DNA from: a virus
Taxonomy: Duplodnaviria > Heunggongvirae > Uroviricota > Caudoviricetes
Direction: 5' to 3' (one strand)
IMG/VR virus record: IMGVR_UViG_2529292919_000017
Length of the DNA: 25,058 nt
Position 1 is the stretch's first letter; each line of letters opens with the position of its first letter. Under the pieces are notes generated by a model. It did not search any database. It was not told the DNA's origin and saw only the letters and a list, made by a program, of their open reading frames with translations. Positions 4,154-14,337 of this stretch are shown piece by piece. The translations under genes were made by a program, and so were the position numbers.

Positions 4154-4263
4154 GTCCTTATTATTACGCTCTGTATTGCAACCATCCATGCACAATGTGT
4201 ATTTTTGCTTGCATTCAAAAAGTACATATTGTATTTTTTCTTCATGGTTACTATGGAGGGCAT
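4154..4263. promoter_or_regulatory. OR region with divergent pRM/pR and candidate operators
   Basis: Intergenic between divergent cI and cro. Dyads CACAATGTG (4191-4199) and TACATATTGTA (4223-4233). pR candidate: -35 TTGCAT (4209-4214), 17-bp spacer, -10 TATTTT (4232-4237), with the second dyad in the spacer and -10. Confidence 0.55.
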
Positions 4264-4479
4264 ATGAGCAACCTACGAAAATATCGAGAGTCACTGAATA
4301 TCTCTCAAACAACACTTGCTAAGGCAGTTGGATGCACACAGGGAGCTATCGGACATTGGGAATCTGGTCGTCGCTTCCCAGACCTTAAAACATGCCGTGC
4401 TCTTGTTGCGTGTCTAAACAAGTTAGGCGCAAAAGTAAGTCTTGATGACGTGTTCCCGCCGGAGCACAAAGCCGCTTAA
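4264..4479 (+). CDS. cro: Cro-like HTH repressor (71 aa)
   Basis: ATG 4264 preceded by GGAGGG; translation [71 protein letters not shown] is an XRE-type HTH. The track ORF from 4195 overlaps the cI start. Confidence 0.75.
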
Positions 4480-11494: not shown

Positions 11495-11625
11495 ACAAAG
11501 CATTCGAACGATATATGCGCCAGCGTTATGGCAATCGCTACGATCTTACCCGCGATGCTTACGGCTTCTACTGTCGTGAGGTTGTGAAACGAATGTTTGA
11601 AGTGTGGTGTCATTGCAAAGGATAG
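11491..11625 (+). CDS. ylcG: YlcG-like small protein (44 aa)
   Basis: ATG 11491 overlaps the rusA stop; MNKAFERYMRQRYGNRYDLTRDAYGFYCREVVKRMFEVWCHCKG; same position as ylcG between rusA and Q in DLP12. Confidence 0.5.
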   Translation: MNKAFERYMRQRYGNRYDLTRDAYGFYCREVVKRMFEVWCHCKG

Positions 11626-11636
11626 AGGGGAAGACG

Positions 11637-12260
11637 ATGAGACTCGAAAGCGTAGCTAAATTTCATTCGCCAAAAAGCCCGATGATGAGCGACTCACCAC
11701 GGGCCACGGCTTCTGACTCTCTTTCCGGTACTGATGTGATGGCTGCTATGGGGATGGCGCAATCACAAGCCGGATTCGGAATGGCTGCATTCTGCGGTAA
11801 GCACGAACTCAGCCAGAACGACAAACAAAAGGCTATCAACTATCTGATGCAATTTGCACACAAGGTATCGGGGAAATACCGTGGCGTGGCAAAGCTTGAA
11901 GGAAATACTAAGGCAAAGGTACTGCAAGTGCTCGCAACATTCGCTTATGCGGATTATTGCCGTAGTGCCGCGACGCCGGGCGCAAGATGCAGAGATTGCC
12001 ACGGTACAGGCCGTGCGGTTGATATAGCCAAAACAGAGCAGTGGGGGATAGTTGCTGAGAAAGAGTGCGGAAGATGTAAAGGCGTCGGTTATTCAAGAAT
12101 GCCAGCAAGCGCCGCATATCGCGCTGTGACGATGCTAATCCCAAACCTTACCCAACCCACCTGGTCACGCACTGTTAAGCCGCTGTATGACGCTCTGGTT
12201 GTGCAATGCCACAAGGAAGAGTCAATCGCAGACAACATTTTGAATGCGATCACACGTTAG
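11637..12260 (+). CDS. Q: late-gene antiterminator Q (lambda type)
   Basis: ATG 11637 after AGAGGGGAAG; MRLESVAKFHSPKSPMMSDSPRATASDSLSGTDVMAAMGMAQSQAGFGMAAFCGKHELSQ... matches lambda Q from memory over 207 aa. Confidence 0.9.
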   Translation: MRLESVAKFHSPKSPMMSDSPRATASDSLSGTDVMAAMGMAQSQAGFGMAAFCGKHELSQNDKQKAINYLMQFAHKVSGKYRGVAKLEGNTKAKVLQVLATFAYADYCRSAATPGARCRDCHGTGRAVDIAKTEQWGIVAEKECGRCKGVGYSRMPASAAYRAVTMLIPNLTQPTWSRTVKPLYDALVVQCHKEESIADNILNAITR

Positions 12261-12302
12261 CGCCATGATTGCCACGGATGGCAACATATTAACGGCATAA
12301 TA

Positions 12303-12335
12303 TTGACTTTTTGAATAACTTTGGGGAAACTTGAC
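12303..12335 (+). promoter_or_regulatory. pR'-like late promoter with qut, -10 hexamer altered relative to lambda
   Basis: TTGACT (12303-12308), spacer TTTTGAATAACTTTGGG, then GAAACT (12326-12331), parallel to lambda TTGACT-TATTGAATAAAATTGGG-TAAATT; resemblance to lambda appears to stop just after TTGAC at about 12335. Confidence 0.45.
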
Positions 12336-12472
12336 ACCAATAATGGGCGTTTTTTACATGTCATTGATGAGTCTCAATAACCTGCCGCCGAGTAGTTTTT
12401 ATGCTCTGAATTGTATTTGTGTAGTAAACATGCTGACTGCAATGTAATAGAGTTTTTTTAGCCTGTAACCTC

Positions 12473-12502
12473 TTGACGGCATTGAATTGCTTTTGTTATG
12501 AG
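12473..12502 (+). promoter_or_regulatory. candidate sigma70 promoter for the membrane-protein gene
   Basis: -35 TTGACG (12473-12478), 17-18 bp spacer, -10 TTATGA/TATGAG (12496-12502), about 40 bp upstream of ATG 12540. Confidence 0.3.
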
Positions 12503-12539
12503 TTGTAAGCCAATGTTATCATCTTGTATTGGGGTGGTT

Positions 12540-13256
12540 ATGAAGGATGGTGCACTGCTCAGGAGTTCTTCACTTTTTATTGCCTACATGGGATGCCTTG
12601 GATGGGGGAGTGCTTATTTCTATGGATGGGGTACTTCTTTTTACTACGGCTTCCCATGGTGGATTGTAGGTGCAGGTGTTGATGATGTTGCCAGAAGTTT
12701 ATTTTTTGCAGTTATCGTCATTGCTATATTTCTTATCGGTTGGGGTATTGGTGTTGTATTCTTTTTCGCAGTGAAAAGAAAACATTCTATGCAAGAGCTA
12801 AATGTATTTCGCCTTTATTTTGCTGTGGAATTATTGTTTGTGCCGGCAATTATTGAGTTTTCTATATTGAGACAGAAGATTCAGGTACCTCTTTTGCTAC
12901 TGTCAGCAGCGATTGCGCTGGCGGTTACAATTTCGATAAGATCTTATGGGCGATTTTTATCGGTATCATGCTTCTATGATAAGCCATTTATAAAAAAACA
13001 TTTTTTTGAGATTGTGATGATTGCTTTTGTGGCATATTTCTGGTTTTTTTCATTTCTGACAGGATATTACAAACCGCAGTTTAAGAAAGAATATGAAATG
13101 ATTAATTATAATGATGGTTGGTATTATGTTCTTGCTCGTTATGATAATTGTCTGGTTTTGTCTACTTCTTTCAATGCAGGTAGTAAAAGGTTTGTCATTT
13201 ATCAATCAGCACAAGATAAGAATCTTCAGGTTGATATTGTAAGGACCAGAATTTAA
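12540..13256 (+). CDS. polytopic inner-membrane protein of unknown function (about 238 aa, 5-6 predicted TM helices plus a C-terminal soluble tail)
   Basis: ATG 12540 after GGGGTGG (track ORF starts at 12498). Hydrophobic segments LFIAYMGCLGWGSAYFYGW, LFFAVIVIAIFLIGWGIGVVFFFAV, LYFAVELLFVPAIIEFSIL, VPLLLLSAAIALAVTISI, FFEIVMIAFVAYFWFFSFLTGYY; C-terminal YNDGWYYVLARYDNCLVLSTSFNAGSKRFVIYQ. Visibly AT-rich relative to the flanking phage genes. Confidence 0.65.
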   Translation: MKDGALLRSSSLFIAYMGCLGWGSAYFYGWGTSFYYGFPWWIVGAGVDDVARSLFFAVIVIAIFLIGWGIGVVFFFAVKRKHSMQELNVFRLYFAVELLFVPAIIEFSILRQKIQVPLLLLSAAIALAVTISIRSYGRFLSVSCFYDKPFIKKHFFEIVMIAFVAYFWFFSFLTGYYKPQFKKEYEMINYNDGWYYVLARYDNCLVLSTSFNAGSKRFVIYQSAQDKNLQVDIVRTRI

Positions 13257-13686
13257 TTGGCTGCATAAATAATATTTTAAGTTGCAAGTTGGCTATTCGT
13301 AGGAATAGAACCTTAGGCATGCTGAATGCGTTTTCTGAACATTGTTTTATAAACTGTGTCTGCTTGCTGTTGTGATCCTGCTTTTAGTGATGGTGATGAT
13401 GGATTTCACCAGCAGGATAATGTTGGTACTGACTGATGGCGCTCTGGTCTGCGGCATTGTGGTATTGCTGTGGCCGATGATGAAAAAACAGAATGAATAA
13501 TCCTTGACTTTTTTGTTTACTGTTTATTAAAAAATCAACCGCATGGTGAATCCTCCTTGGAGGGGCTAAATGATCGAGTTTTAAGGGCACGTAGCGAGTT
13601 CTGTTTGATCATTGCAGAACTTAGCGGGAGGCGCCATGCGTACATCACTAATGTTATTTCCTTCTATCATTTTCCTTGTGAGTTCT

Positions 13687-13713
13687 GGCTGCGCATGGCG
13701 CGGCCTTTTTTTT
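13687..13713 (+). terminator. rho-independent terminator
   Basis: Stem GGCTGCGC (13687-13694) / GCGCGGCC (13698-13705) with one G-U pair, 3-nt loop, then eight T (13706-13713). Confidence 0.55.
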
Positions 13714-13894
13714 ATGACCTGCCACTGGCAGATGGTCATCCTGTGATTTGATTCCGGTTCCGGCTTTTTAACTCTGTTCCTGTACACGGGAGAAATTCTA
13801 TGTCGATTAATCGTTATGATATTGGTTACAAGAAGTACCACGTATTGTGTTGAGATAGAAAGCATGGTGCCAGAGGTAAATGCAGCAGCATAAT

Positions 13895-13942
13895 AAAAAA
13901 GAGCCAGCGCAGAAGAGAACGGGTAAAAGAGTCTGCGCTGGC
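13895..13942 (-). terminator. rho-independent terminator on the minus strand with no obvious upstream gene
   Basis: Perfect 11-bp stem GCCAGCGCAGA (13903-13913) / TCTGCGCTGGC (13932-13942) with an 18-nt loop; the plus-strand A-run 13895-13900 gives a U-run after the stem on the minus strand. Confidence 0.45.
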
Positions 13943-14058
13943 GTGGGGATATTCCCCGTGGAGAAATGATATGTAACACACATCGGGAACCTTTCTATAT
14001 AAACATTATCATTATTGTCAATCATAACAGTCAGGTATTATGACGTTTATGCATCAGG

Positions 14059-14086
14059 GCCATCAGGAATTAACTGGTGGCTTTTT
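14059..14086 (+). terminator. rho-independent terminator immediately upstream of the holin gene (tR'-like)
   Basis: Stem GCCATCAG (14059-14066) / CTGGTGGC (14074-14081) with one G-U pair, 7-nt loop, then TTTTT (14082-14086); about 35 bp before the S start. Confidence 0.5.
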
Positions 14087-14121
14087 ATTGTTGTCAGCTT
14101 CCGGATAACGGGAGACGGGGT

Positions 14122-14337
14122 ATGTACCAGATGGAAAAAATAACAACAGGTGTGTCATACACCACGTCAGCGGTGGGGACGGGATACTGGCTACTGCAGT
14201 TGCTGGACAAAGTCTCCCCATCCCAGTGGGTGGCAATAGGCGTATTGGGTAGCCTGGTGTTTGGCTTGCTGACGTATCTGACAAACCTTTATTTCAAGAT
14301 TAAAGAAGATAAGCGTAAGGCTGCGAGAGGTGAATAA
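14122..14337 (+). CDS. S: holin S (phage-21 type, dual-start motif)
   Basis: ATG 14122 after GGGAGACGGGG; [45 protein letters not shown]... with two Met codons separated by YQ (antiholin/holin starts); matches the S21-type holin from memory. Confidence 0.85.

Follow-up and report, generated by a model that had tools for sequence, protein, structure and literature searches.

The window (the whole 25,058-nt stretch of DNA analyzed here) is 100% identical to prophage PP4 of EPEC E2348/69 (NC_011601), with an offset of 1046719 between window and chromosome coordinates. The part considered below, 13257–14121, is preceded by the Q antiterminator gene (11604–12260; PF03589) and by a cargo gene encoding 252 amino acids (12498–13256), and is followed by the gene for an S21-type holin (PF04971) that starts at 14122. 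The Q stop codon is separated from the beginning of this part by 997 nt, with the cargo CDS in between. In the O157 strain Sakai, the equivalent segment of prophage Sp3 (900942–901806) is 99.65% identical to 13257–14121, without gaps and with three point differences.

What do these ~860 bp of seemingly empty DNA contain? The preliminary description, made by reading the sequence without tools, had found no convincing ORF here, only terminators and short peptide ORFs, and had favored an RNA-based module rather than protein genes. The three terminators and both short ORFs that it named are indeed present, within a few bases of the coordinates given. The absence of a convincing ORF is not upheld, since a 52-aa ORF exceeds the Pfam gathering score for DUF3927. 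As for protein genes in general, the DUF3927 ORF is a genuine family member, while the 36-aa ORF and a 132-aa ORF annotated by RefSeq are probably not genes.

Organization of the moron slot

Downstream of Q and the cargo CDS, the order is PasD1 on the plus strand, ending at 13713, a minus-strand sRNA ending at 13894, and the holin gene at 14122. Among 71 prophage contigs, the commonest layout is cargo, DUF3927, PasD1, scar, sRNA, terminator and holin. The region very probably corresponds to a lambdoid-prophage "moron" slot, with the Q-dependent late promoter region on one side and the lysis cassette on the other, occupied by a DUF3927/TciB-like gene, PasD1, the scar of a nanS-p gene, a convergent EcOnc32-type sRNA and a pre-holin terminator. 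Convergent sRNA pairs were described at the moron site 3' of PR' in Sp3 and seven other Sakai prophages (Tree 2014, PMC4104026), and the same configuration is found here, in that two facing sRNA genes are bounded by a moron CDS, itself downstream of Q/PR', and by the next phage ORF. The small-RNA pair is already known: the convergent Hfq-binding pairs of the moron site were published in 2014 (Tree 2014), PasD1 in 2021 (Pearl Mizrahi 2021), and the kinship of PasD with STnc100, along with nearby Esr41-like matches, in 2026 (Zhu 2026). The apparently empty DNA is thus explained as part of a very common prophage architecture.

A tRNA scan of the window found none, and no Rfam model matched at its gathering threshold anywhere in the window. 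The covariance search that had been suggested as a check did return STnc100 and Esr41, both from a permissive Rfam search only. Matches to asX2 and SorX were dismissed as look-alikes that cover only the PasD1 terminator.

Intrinsic terminators

A hairpin followed by a U-run, the signature of Rho-independent termination, is found at all three sites, and all three hairpins fold, as had been proposed for verification. The first, on the plus strand at 13687–13713, has an 8-bp stem, GGCTGCGC/GCGCGGCC (13687–13694 and 13698–13705), with the loop ATG and T8 at 13706–13713, exactly as first read; it was recovered both by the scan and by folding (-15.2 kcal/mol, z = -3.15). The second, on the minus strand at 13903–13942, has the perfect 11-bp stem that had been noted (13903–13913 and 13932–13942), with an 18-nt loop, followed on the minus strand by TCTTTTTTAT. 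It folds at -21.2 kcal/mol (z = -7.25, equaled by 0 of 200 shuffles), and it was missed by the consensus scan solely because its loop is longer than 8 nt. The third is an intrinsic-terminator-like hairpin and T-run on the plus strand (14056–14091), 31 nt before the holin start; its stem of 11 pairs lies at 14056–14084, slightly displaced from the 14059–14086 originally assigned, and is followed by TTATTGTTGT according to the scan (fold z = -2.78). By number alone, terminator-like sites were not above chance (5 found vs 2.9 +/- 1.9 in shuffles).

For two of the three terminators, published experiments map an RNA 3' end to exactly the same base, 13713 and 13894, respectively. Small RNAs had been one of the suggestions for the region, and both of these terminators do end sRNAs (PasD1 and an EcOnc32-type RNA) that were Hfq-bound in published CRAC and RIL-seq data. 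From published experiments, both RNAs are known to be real, Hfq-bound and abundant in the lysogen, with 3' ends at 13713 and 13894. Terminators read without tools can, therefore, flag sRNA genes correctly.

PasD1

The 173-nt, Hfq-binding sRNA PasD1 was placed at NC_011601 + 1060260–1060432 (Table S6, Pearl Mizrahi 2021, PMC8550237), corresponding to 13541–13713 on the plus strand of the window, and was validated there by Northern blotting, RNA-seq coverage and Hfq RIL-seq interactions. The extracted sequence fits the published PasD1/PasD2 fragments, with a single U absent from the machine-read PDF text for PasD1. Judging by coordinates, sequence, seed and genome, which all agree, the RNA is PasD1 itself. 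The Hfq-CRAC peak of EcOnc13 in Sakai (901332–901382) maps to 13647–13697 in the window, onto PasD1, which is the homologue of EcOnc13 in O157 Sakai/EHEC. The RNA ends at the intrinsic terminator with its 8-bp stem and U8 (13687–13713), the published 3' end, 1060432, being 13713. A sigma-70 promoter is predicted at 13504–13535, with a -35 element TTGACT (13504–13509) and an A/T-rich -10 at ~13528–13533, 7 nt before the mapped 5' end; a simple promoter scan did not call it.

The seed UGUGAG (13677–13682) is complementary to the CUCACA motif common to the RIL-seq targets of PasD1 (Fig. S5 and motif table, PMC8550237), and PasD1 very probably pairs with CUCACA-containing mRNAs through it. The first part of the seed is in a weak hairpin in the MFE structure and is unpaired in the centroid. 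In the RNA-seq table of the same study, PasD1 was barely changed in an hfq deletion (log2FC -0.18, padj 0.83), unlike the Northern blots, which showed that its stability depends on Hfq (PMC8550237).

A covariance search aligned the full-length STnc100 model (RF02076, positions 1–206) to 13511–13716, starting ~30 nt upstream of the PasD1 5' end, with 37.7 bits (E = 6.1e-6), which does not reach the gathering score of 47 bits. STnc100, which occurs as a multicopy sRNA in the late regions of Salmonella and E. coli lambdoid prophages, resembles PasD1 in its GCAUGGUGAAUCC start, CCUCC/GGAGG stems and terminator; its seed region is different, however, and BLAST finds no connection between the two. 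PasD1 is therefore best regarded as a diverged relative of STnc100 rather than a member of the family. Common ancestry of PasD and STnc100 was also concluded by Zhu, Shabalina & Storz (2026 preprint, doi 10.64898/2026.05.13.724894).

Could PasD1 be a dual-function RNA that also encodes a peptide? The 36-aa ORF MRTSLMLFPSIIFLVSSGC... at 13636–13746 on the plus strand, with GGGAGG at 13626–13631, is exactly as had been described. The Shine-Dalgarno sequence is located 4 nt before the ATG at 13636, the N-terminus of the peptide resembles a signal peptide ending in Cys, and some STnc100 copies in EDL933 bear ribosome footprints, with ribosomal coverage values from 0.04 to 3.2 (the copy at 902843 is presumably the CP-933K homologue). 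However, the 173-nt RNA ends before the stop codon of the ORF is reached, and the MFE and centroid structures both place GGGAGG and the AUG in the long closing helix. PasD2 argues against it as well. This RNA, from prophage PP2 of the same strain, has one 1-nt deletion and four substitutions relative to PasD1, and an intact esterase gene lies downstream of it. The deletion falls inside the 36-aa ORF and shifts the frame, so that translation would stop after 14 codons, at a point that lies in the seed; the frameshifted PasD2 is nevertheless equally expressed and equally conserved. An overlapping 64-aa frame had no Pfam or PHROG match. A coding role for PasD1 is accordingly very improbable, and the ORF inside it is probably non-coding and untranslated.

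The minus-strand sRNA

The convergent RNA is an Esr41-like, Hfq-binding sRNA of ~92 nt on the minus strand, running from a predicted 5' end at ~13987 to the mapped 3' end at 13894. It consists of a 5' hairpin (13984–13968), a single-stranded seed CAUUUCUCCAC (13968–13958), a second hairpin (13957–13945), the terminator stem (13942–13903) and a U-run to 13894. The MFE and centroid structures are identical, with three hairpins and a free seed (z = -6.84). The promoter, as read from the sequence, is predicted at 13994–14021, with -35 TTGACA (14021–14016), a 16-nt spacer and -10 TATAGA (13999–13994). Variants of the sRNA occur in 69 IMG/VR prophage contigs and fall into three types, in all of which the promoter hexamers TTGACA and TATA(G/A)A are kept and the 5' hairpin and seed are invariant, while the spacer and the terminator vary. 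In an alignment of the variants with Esr41, which holds six distinct sequences only, 93% of cells are paired, and two terminator pairs change on both sides. The full sRNA block is present in ~11% of complete E. coli genomes. A pattern scan of one genome per species gave 23 matches to the sRNA core, all in unrelated MAGs or taxa and taken as chance; the exact core is absent from the representative genomes of other enterobacterial species in that scan.

In the published EPEC RIL-seq data, the RNA appears as RNA2 at 1060613–1060672 on the minus strand (window 13894–13953) and is RNA2 in 100% of its chimeras. It accounts for ~808,000 of the ~18.2 million "other fragments", as compared with 686k for SroC and 147k for ArcZ. 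In RNA-seq, its baseMean is 2064 vs ~5 for the holin and Q genes, with a log2FC of -2.9 in the hfq deletion. The Hfq-CRAC peak of EcOnc32 in Sakai (901574–901662, minus strand) maps to 13889–13977 in the window, assuming that the current NC_002695.2 coordinates equal those used in 2014; this assumption is supported because EcOnc13 maps consistently onto PasD1. By position and sequence, the minus-strand RNA can thus be taken as the homologue of EcOnc32 from Sakai Sp3. EcOnc32 appears as a supplementary-table entry only, with a predicted terminator and a Northern band of ~112 nt, and its Hfq CRAC signal is the second-highest among the orphan sites considered from that table (Tree 2014, PMC4104026). 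The Northern estimate exceeds the ~92 nt predicted in EPEC, for which the primary 5' end would be at ~13984–13987; an RNA of ~112 nt would start near 14005. Within the library searched, no main text contained the name EcOnc32. Two other identities were rejected: PasE is the 5'UTR of E2348C_0271, a different locus, and HnrS is a 66-nt RNA that corresponds to EcOnc10–12 in other prophages.

An esterase scar and the 132-aa ORF

Between the two sRNAs, at 13800–13893 on the plus strand, lies the deletion scar of a nanS-p/SASA-family 9-O-acetyl esterase gene, recognized by alignment to PP2. Window positions 13257–13824 are 97.5% identical to the PP2 locus at 1874–2440, and 13825–13909 are 81% identical to 4195–4281; from these two blocks it follows that 1754 bp are missing from the window. 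What the scar retains of the gene is 25 nt from its start and 69 nt from its end, joined out of frame at 13824/13825. Alignment of the window against phage 434 gives the same pattern.

This scar bears on the RefSeq annotation of a 132-aa hypothetical protein (E2348C_1013, WP_012578864.1) at 13581–13979 on the minus strand. The frame overlaps most of PasD1 in antisense orientation and shares its first ~85 nt with the minus-strand sRNA. If it were a real gene, the Hfq-bound reads would represent the 5' part of its mRNA, and PGAP does annotate it in E2348/69, in Sakai (ECs_0817) and in many other genomes. However, the ORF spans the deletion junction at 13824/13825 and so owes its existence to the deletion alone; in PP2, where the esterase gene is intact, the frame is annotated as frameshifted and partial, with an internal stop. 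From the GTG start it is 37 nt to the perfect 11-bp terminator, with the mapped 3' ends at 13894. The RIL-seq RNA2 read ends on the ORF extend over 13894–13953 only, and the chimeras are sRNA-like, with the locus as RNA2 in 100%. The best Pfam match, Sid-5, reached 18.9 bits, less than the 27-bit cut-off, and there was no other Pfam, PHROG or NCBIfam match. A protein-coding gene at this position is highly unlikely; E2348C_1013/ECs_0817 is most likely a spurious annotation, an artefact that hides a highly abundant, Northern-detected EcOnc32-type sRNA.

The DUF3927 gene

The 52-aa ORF at 13342–13500 on the plus strand (RefSeq WP_000499456.1) encodes a small membrane protein of the two-helix DUF3927/TciB-like family; TTG at 13342 and ATG at 13390 are its candidate start codons. 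It scores 54.2 bits against PF13064, for which the curated cut-off is 25 (E = 1.4e-14), with residues 7–50 aligned to profile positions 7–49 of 53, and it matches PHROG 1470, "TciB-like", with E = 1.2e-17 (PHROGs has no curated threshold); it covers nearly the full length of both profiles. The preliminary description had reported a 37-aa hydrophobic peptide from the ATG at 13390 to 13503. That frame exists, encoding 36 residues and ending with a stop codon at 13498–13500, and is the C-terminal part of the 52-aa ORF. The phage 434 homologue is annotated as TciB, a name that comes from phage annotation, of phage 434 and of the tci genes of phage P1. A literature search for "TciB" gave nothing relevant, and no tested function was found for the DUF3927/PHROG 1470 family.

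A type I toxin-antitoxin-like pair had been proposed for this locus. On such a reading, the DUF3927 peptide would act as a membrane toxin, with one of the small RNAs nearby curbing its translation. The product is very hydrophobic and its gene directly adjoins that of an abundant sRNA. In prophage PP5, DUF3927 also precedes a PasD/STnc100-like 5' segment, and the PHROG family carries the label "inhibition of cell division or resistance to colicin". The geometry is wrong, however: PasD1 is on the same strand as the DUF3927 ORF, downstream and without overlap, and the RIL-seq rows listed include no antisense RNA over 13342–13500. Nor do the sRNAs match the mRNA better than shuffled controls, since the best duplexes with the DUF3927 mRNA were matched by 39 of 300 shuffles for the single-stranded region of PasD1 and by 85 of 300 for the minus-strand seed. 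The protein has two hydrophobic segments in its hydropathy profile, whereas Hok, TisB, Ldr, Ibs and Zor are single-helix toxins. The published targets of PasD1 are trans-encoded (PMC8550237). A toxin-antitoxin function is, on balance, very improbable.

Weakest of all is the suggestion that the plus-strand terminators are of the tR' type and end a short constitutive pR' transcript, like lambda 6S RNA and StxS; the stretch is downstream of the Q antiterminator gene (PF03589) and has strong plus-strand terminators, and such leaders can act as sRNAs, as described for StxS, but in lambdoid phages the leader begins at pR' directly after Q, while here the 252-aa cargo gene (12498–13256) and the DUF3927 gene intervene between the end of Q at 12260 and the terminators, PasD1 starts at a mapped 5' end of its own (13541), with the TTGACT -35 in front of it, and the annotation of phage 434 has a separate terminator immediately behind Q, ~1 kb upstream of the region homologous to this one. 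This stretch thus does not represent a transcript that starts at PR' directly after Q and ends at a tR' ahead of the first late or moron gene, and a late leader can hardly be entertained.

An Esr41-like regulator of iron acquisition?

Having two sRNAs in the moron slot, what might the less well-known, minus-strand one do? The Esr41 model (RF02676) matched it at model positions 1–74 with 32.3 bits (E = 0.0016), not reaching the gathering score of 102 bits, and blastn of the window against the Esr41 locus found no similarity. Esr41 (EcOnc14) is an sRNA of the EHEC island SpLE1 that represses cirA, chuA and bfr, genes for the uptake and storage of iron. Both RNAs have the same elements in the same order, namely a 5' hairpin starting with GAUG, a U-rich single-stranded seed with CUCCA (UUUCUCCA in the Esr41 architecture), a GGGG...CCC hairpin and a GCC(A/G)GC terminator, and ~50 nt can be aligned. 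The terminator of the minus-strand sRNA, with its 18-nt loop, is longer than that of Esr41. The context is also different, Esr41 being located beside iha in SpLE1 and the minus-strand sRNA in a prophage late region. In position and orientation the minus-strand sRNA agrees with AgvB and AsxR (RF02702, RF02703), which are likewise Hfq-bound and encoded, on the minus strand relative to the late operon, between a moron CDS and the lysis genes. However, these are RNAs of 51–60 nt with a conserved 42-nt 3' region; neither model had an Rfam match in the window at E <= 1, and nothing indicates a sponge activity for the minus-strand sRNA, unlike the "anti-sRNAs" AgvB and AsxR. In a MAFFT alignment with PasA and PasC, the minus-strand sRNA has GTACATCTA...AGCCAGCG in common with them, a suggestive though not convincing resemblance.

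The public RIL-seq data indicate entC, a gene of enterobactin synthesis, as a specific partner: its 5'UTR has the highest odds ratio of all partners (14.0, with 263 chimeras). Pairing between the seed and entC comprises 12 bp, over the Shine-Dalgarno sequence up to the start codon (-16.3 kcal/mol), and an 8-bp match with dnaK is also over the Shine-Dalgarno sequence. These duplexes come from seed-restricted runs only; full-length RNAduplex of the sRNA with its targets was dropped, being uninformative because it ignores intramolecular structure. The most numerous partner is the rpoS start region, with 537 chimeras at a low odds ratio of 2.8, and the seed-restricted runs gave no convincing pairing with it. 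The target set is uncertain because the partner with the top count combines a low odds ratio with the lack of convincing seed pairing. The anti-Shine-Dalgarno seed CAUUUCUCCAC would cover ribosome-binding sites such as that of entC, and the RNA most likely acts, as far as the predicted pairing goes, by translational repression through occlusion of these sites. Like the targets of Esr41, entC, the best-supported partner here, is an iron-acquisition gene.

A tentative reading, subject to considerable doubt, is that the minus-strand RNA functions as an uncharacterised paralogue of Esr41 and, by occluding the entC ribosome-binding site, links iron homeostasis to the carriage of the prophage. The paralogue would be among the most abundant Hfq ligands of EPEC, with ~4% of RIL-seq fragments in the activating condition, and would be missing from the EPEC sRNA catalogue because the spurious CDS E2348C_1013 was credited with its reads. 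Given its abundance, such an RNA may have further effects, by titrating Hfq or through the rpoS leader.

Possible insulation of the lysis genes

The terminator before S would keep transcription from moron promoters off the lysis genes in the lysogen, whereas Q-modified polymerase would read through all plus-strand terminators during lytic growth. This third terminator is part of a block conserved upstream of S21-type holins: in phage 434, the site equivalent to the pre-holin hairpin is annotated as a terminator, and the block at 14053–14121 occurs in 2306 of 5426 complete E. coli genomes (>40%) at ~93–94% identity, as well as in several Stx phages.

Genomic setting

The 865 bp that separate the cargo gene from the holin (13257–14121) are 100% identical to NC_011601 1059976–1060840 of E. 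coli O127:H6 E2348/69, so that subtracting 1046719 from a genome coordinate gives the window coordinate. Published RIL-seq and sRNA tables place this locus in prophage PP4 of E2348/69 (PMC8550237). The same 865 bp are found in prophage Sp3 of O157:H7 Sakai (900942–901806), with three mismatches and no gaps, and 563 of 5426 complete E. coli genomes carry them with a coverage of at least 80%. The Q antiterminator (11604–12260, PF03589) lies upstream and an S21-type holin (14122–14337, PF04971) downstream; the holin N-terminus, MYQM... (14122–14133), is presumably the dual-start (Met1/Met4) arrangement of the S21 pinholin/antiholin. The cargo gene itself (12498–13256, plus strand) encodes a 252-aa multi-pass membrane protein of PHROG 1521, a group of unknown function, and matches no Pfam or NCBIfam family. 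In published RNA-seq data this gene (E2348C_1012) is on in the lysogen, with a baseMean of 147 against values near 5 for Q and the holin, and thus behaves in the manner of a moron under a promoter of its own.

A convergent pair of sRNAs

What does this stretch encode? The preliminary description offered a short late leader, small RNAs or a type I toxin–antitoxin-like pair, and the small RNAs proved correct: two published RNAs, PasD1 on the plus strand and an EcOnc32-type RNA on the minus strand, have 3' ends that coincide with two of its three terminators. The convergent pair is already known, since Tree et al. (2014; PMC4104026) describe "convergent sRNAs" lying between a moron CDS and the phage ORF that follows it as recurrent (Sp3, Sp4, Sp5, Sp9, Sp10, Sp11, Sp15 and Sp17).

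PasD1 is listed by Pearl Mizrahi et al. (2021; PMC8550237, Table S6) as a 173-nt, Northern-validated sRNA of PP4 (NC_011601, plus strand, 1060260–1060432), with EcOnc13 as its EHEC homologue. It maps to 13541–13713, and the terminator proposed at 13687 is therefore that of PasD1. Its published seed, UGUGAG (13677–13682), is complementary to the CUCACA motif in its RIL-seq targets (PMC8550237). Tree et al. put EcOnc13 of Sakai at 901332–901382 (plus strand), which by the measured offset corresponds to 13647–13697. A TTGACT at 13504–13509, overlapping the end of the upstream ORF, is the putative −35 element of an inferred PasD1 promoter. When Rfam was searched permissively, STnc100 matched over its full length at 13511–13716 (37.7 bits; gathering score, 47; E = 6e-6), and common ancestry of PasD and STnc100 has already been concluded by Zhu, Shabalina and Storz (2026; doi 10.64898/2026.05.13.724894), who also find Esr41-type cmscan matches to be frequent beside PasD. 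The STnc100 alignment starts some 30 nt before PasD1's mapped 5' end (13511–13540), and the Rfam family model seems to include promoter sequence. In prophage PP5 of E2348/69 (L006, 533–738), a segment with 76% identity to the PasD1 promoter and 5' end (13522–13579) comes after a shorter DUF3927 gene; the adjacency of DUF3927 and STnc100/PasD thus recurs even with a degraded sRNA.

An abundant minus-strand sRNA

The minus-strand RNA ends at 13894, and its 5' end is predicted at about 13984–13987. EcOnc32 of Sp3, at 901574–901662 (minus strand; PMC4104026), maps by the same offset to 13889–13977; it has a predicted terminator and a Northern band of about 112 nt, somewhat longer than our prediction, and among the orphan sites examined it ranks second in Hfq-CRAC signal. 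On this strand the Rfam model of Esr41 makes a weak full-length match at 13893–13982, with 32.3 bits (gathering score, 102) and E = 0.0016. Folding of the RNA yields a 5' hairpin, then an unpaired CAUUUCUCCAC stretch, a GGGG/CCCC hairpin and finally an 11-bp terminator, with identical MFE and centroid structures (z = −6.84). PasE and HnrS were rejected as identities, both being different sRNAs at other loci.

In EPEC this RNA has been filed as a CDS, E2348C_1013, and because of that annotation RIL-seq as well as RNA-seq reads from an abundant sRNA were assigned to a protein gene. Its RIL-seq read ends, 1060613–1060672 (minus strand), correspond to 13894–13953, and it appears only as RNA2, the behavior of an sRNA (PMC8550237). 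With about 808,000 "other fragments" among some 18.2 million, it exceeds both SroC and ArcZ in the same RIL-seq table (PMC8550237); RNA-seq puts it at 2064, where the adjoining holin and Q genes reach about 5, and its level falls 7.5-fold without Hfq. It is missing from the 13 new sRNAs of Table S6 (PMC8550237). The EcOnc32-type sRNA, a candidate regulator, is highly abundant and is hidden behind a doubtful CDS annotation.

The sRNA core is present in 71 IMG/VR prophage contigs, and the 69 with full flanks fall into three main variant types. Conserved elements are the −35 (TTGACA) and −10 (TATA(G/A)A) motifs, the seed, the second hairpin and, but for a G-U pair turned A-U, the 5' hairpin; the promoter spacer and terminator vary. 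An alignment of six distinct sequences, Esr41 among them, has 93% of its cells paired and two terminator pairs altered on both sides; the set being this small, covariation lends the structure weak support.

In RIL-seq the sRNA forms chimeras with the rpoS start region (537 of them, odds ratio 2.8), the entC 5'UTR (263, odds ratio 14.0), an nleB pseudogene segment (72) and the dnaK 5'UTR (28) (PMC8550237). With pairing restricted to the free seed, entC forms 12 bp with GUGGAGGAUGAU, from the SD up to the start codon (−16.3 kcal/mol), and the dnaK SD 8 bp; the rpoS start region pairs poorly. From this pairing we infer that the sRNA would act by occluding the SD in the classical way and that entC is the best candidate for a target, which would echo the validated repression of cirA, chuA and bfr by Esr41.

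The minor 236-nt form of PasA (NC_011601 743264–743499, minus strand) ends at a second terminator, AGCCAGCGTC...GCTGGCTTTTTTT, which resembles that of PasC and suggests two tandem sRNA 3' modules at the PasA site. A GTACATCTA...AGCCAGC element is common to PasA, PasC and the window's minus-strand sRNA, with an unconvincing alignment.

Gene remnant and reading frames

That the region might be a degenerate gene remnant holds for 13800–13893 and fails for the rest. Relative to prophage PP2 of the same strain and to phage 434, the window is 1754 bp short of a SASA-family (nanS-p) esterase gene: 13257–13824 aligns at 97.5%, reaching esterase codon 9, and 13825–13909 at 81% to the last 69 nt of the esterase and the downstream terminator arm. 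By alignment, 13800–13893 is the out-of-frame deletion scar of this known gene, and a 25-aa ORF at 13816–13893 is its former C-terminal frame. The window's architecture is shared by 41 of the 71 contigs, and in a few this sRNA type goes with an intact esterase. What was once the esterase 5' leader (13714–13799) has two small hairpins, ATGACC..GGTCAT and CCGGTTCCGG followed by T5, and folds no better than shuffles (z = −0.18).

The view that the stretch has no convincing ORF needs one amendment. A 52-aa ORF at 13342–13500 (plus strand, TTG start in RefSeq) passes Pfam DUF3927 (54.2 bits against 25), matches PHROG 1470 ("TciB-like") and has a counterpart annotated TciB in phage 434. The hydrophobic peptide noted earlier is its C-terminal two-thirds; the ATG at 13390 stands, and the peptide has 36 aa with its stop at 13498–13500, not 37 aa ending at 13503. 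The 36-aa ORF with a GGGAGG in the PasD1 region is present as described and is unlikely to be coding: its GGGAGG and AUG are paired in long closing helices in both MFE and centroid structures, its stop codon is absent from the PasD1 RNA, and in PasD2, the near-identical copy in PP2, a 1-nt deletion cuts the frame short after 14 codons. Ribosome footprints do occur on some STnc100 copies of EDL933, which leaves its translation a small residual probability.

The 132-aa "hypothetical protein" of RefSeq/PGAP (13581–13979, minus strand; E2348C_RS28255, old tag E2348C_1013, ECs_0817 in Sakai) starts within the minus-strand sRNA and runs antisense to PasD1, overlapping two sRNA genes. Its only Pfam match, to Sid-5, stays below threshold (18.9 bits; cut-off, 27), and PHROG and NCBIfam give none; the esterase deletion junction lies within it, and its PP2 version is annotated as frameshifted and partial. 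With no family, a frame that crosses the junction and a broken copy in PP2, it is regarded as spurious and looks like an annotation artefact.

Terminators and late transcription

A late leader is unsupported here, since PR' must lie directly after Q, about 1 kb upstream. The Q-to-cargo intergenic region (12261–12497) is the expected site of PR', leader and terminator; a simple scan found no clear plus-strand terminator in it. A hairpin, TTGCCAcggaTGGCAA, closely follows the Q stop at about 12271–12286, and two TTGAC(T/A) motifs stand at 12304 and 12331. The type I toxin–antitoxin reading is likewise unsupported: neither sRNA overlaps the DUF3927 ORF or is more complementary to its mRNA than shuffled sequences are.

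Scanning and folding recovered all three claimed hairpin and T-run sites, the third with its stem at 14056–14084 rather than 14059–14086. The number of terminator-like sites is not in excess of chance (5 against 2.9 ± 1.9 in shuffles); the minus-strand terminator hairpin is exceptional in folding (z = −7.25). The third site belongs to a block of hairpin, T-run and S ribosome-binding site (14053–14121, plus strand) preceding the holin, which is found in several Stx phages and in 2306 of the 5426 E. coli genomes irrespective of upstream content. It is far commoner than the adjacent sRNA (592 genomes) and therefore travels with the S21-type lysis cassette. By analogy with lambdoid late regulation, the pre-holin terminator may shield the lysis genes from moron-promoter transcription in the lysogen, and Q-modified polymerase would read through it. 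Phage 434 has a terminator annotated at the corresponding position.
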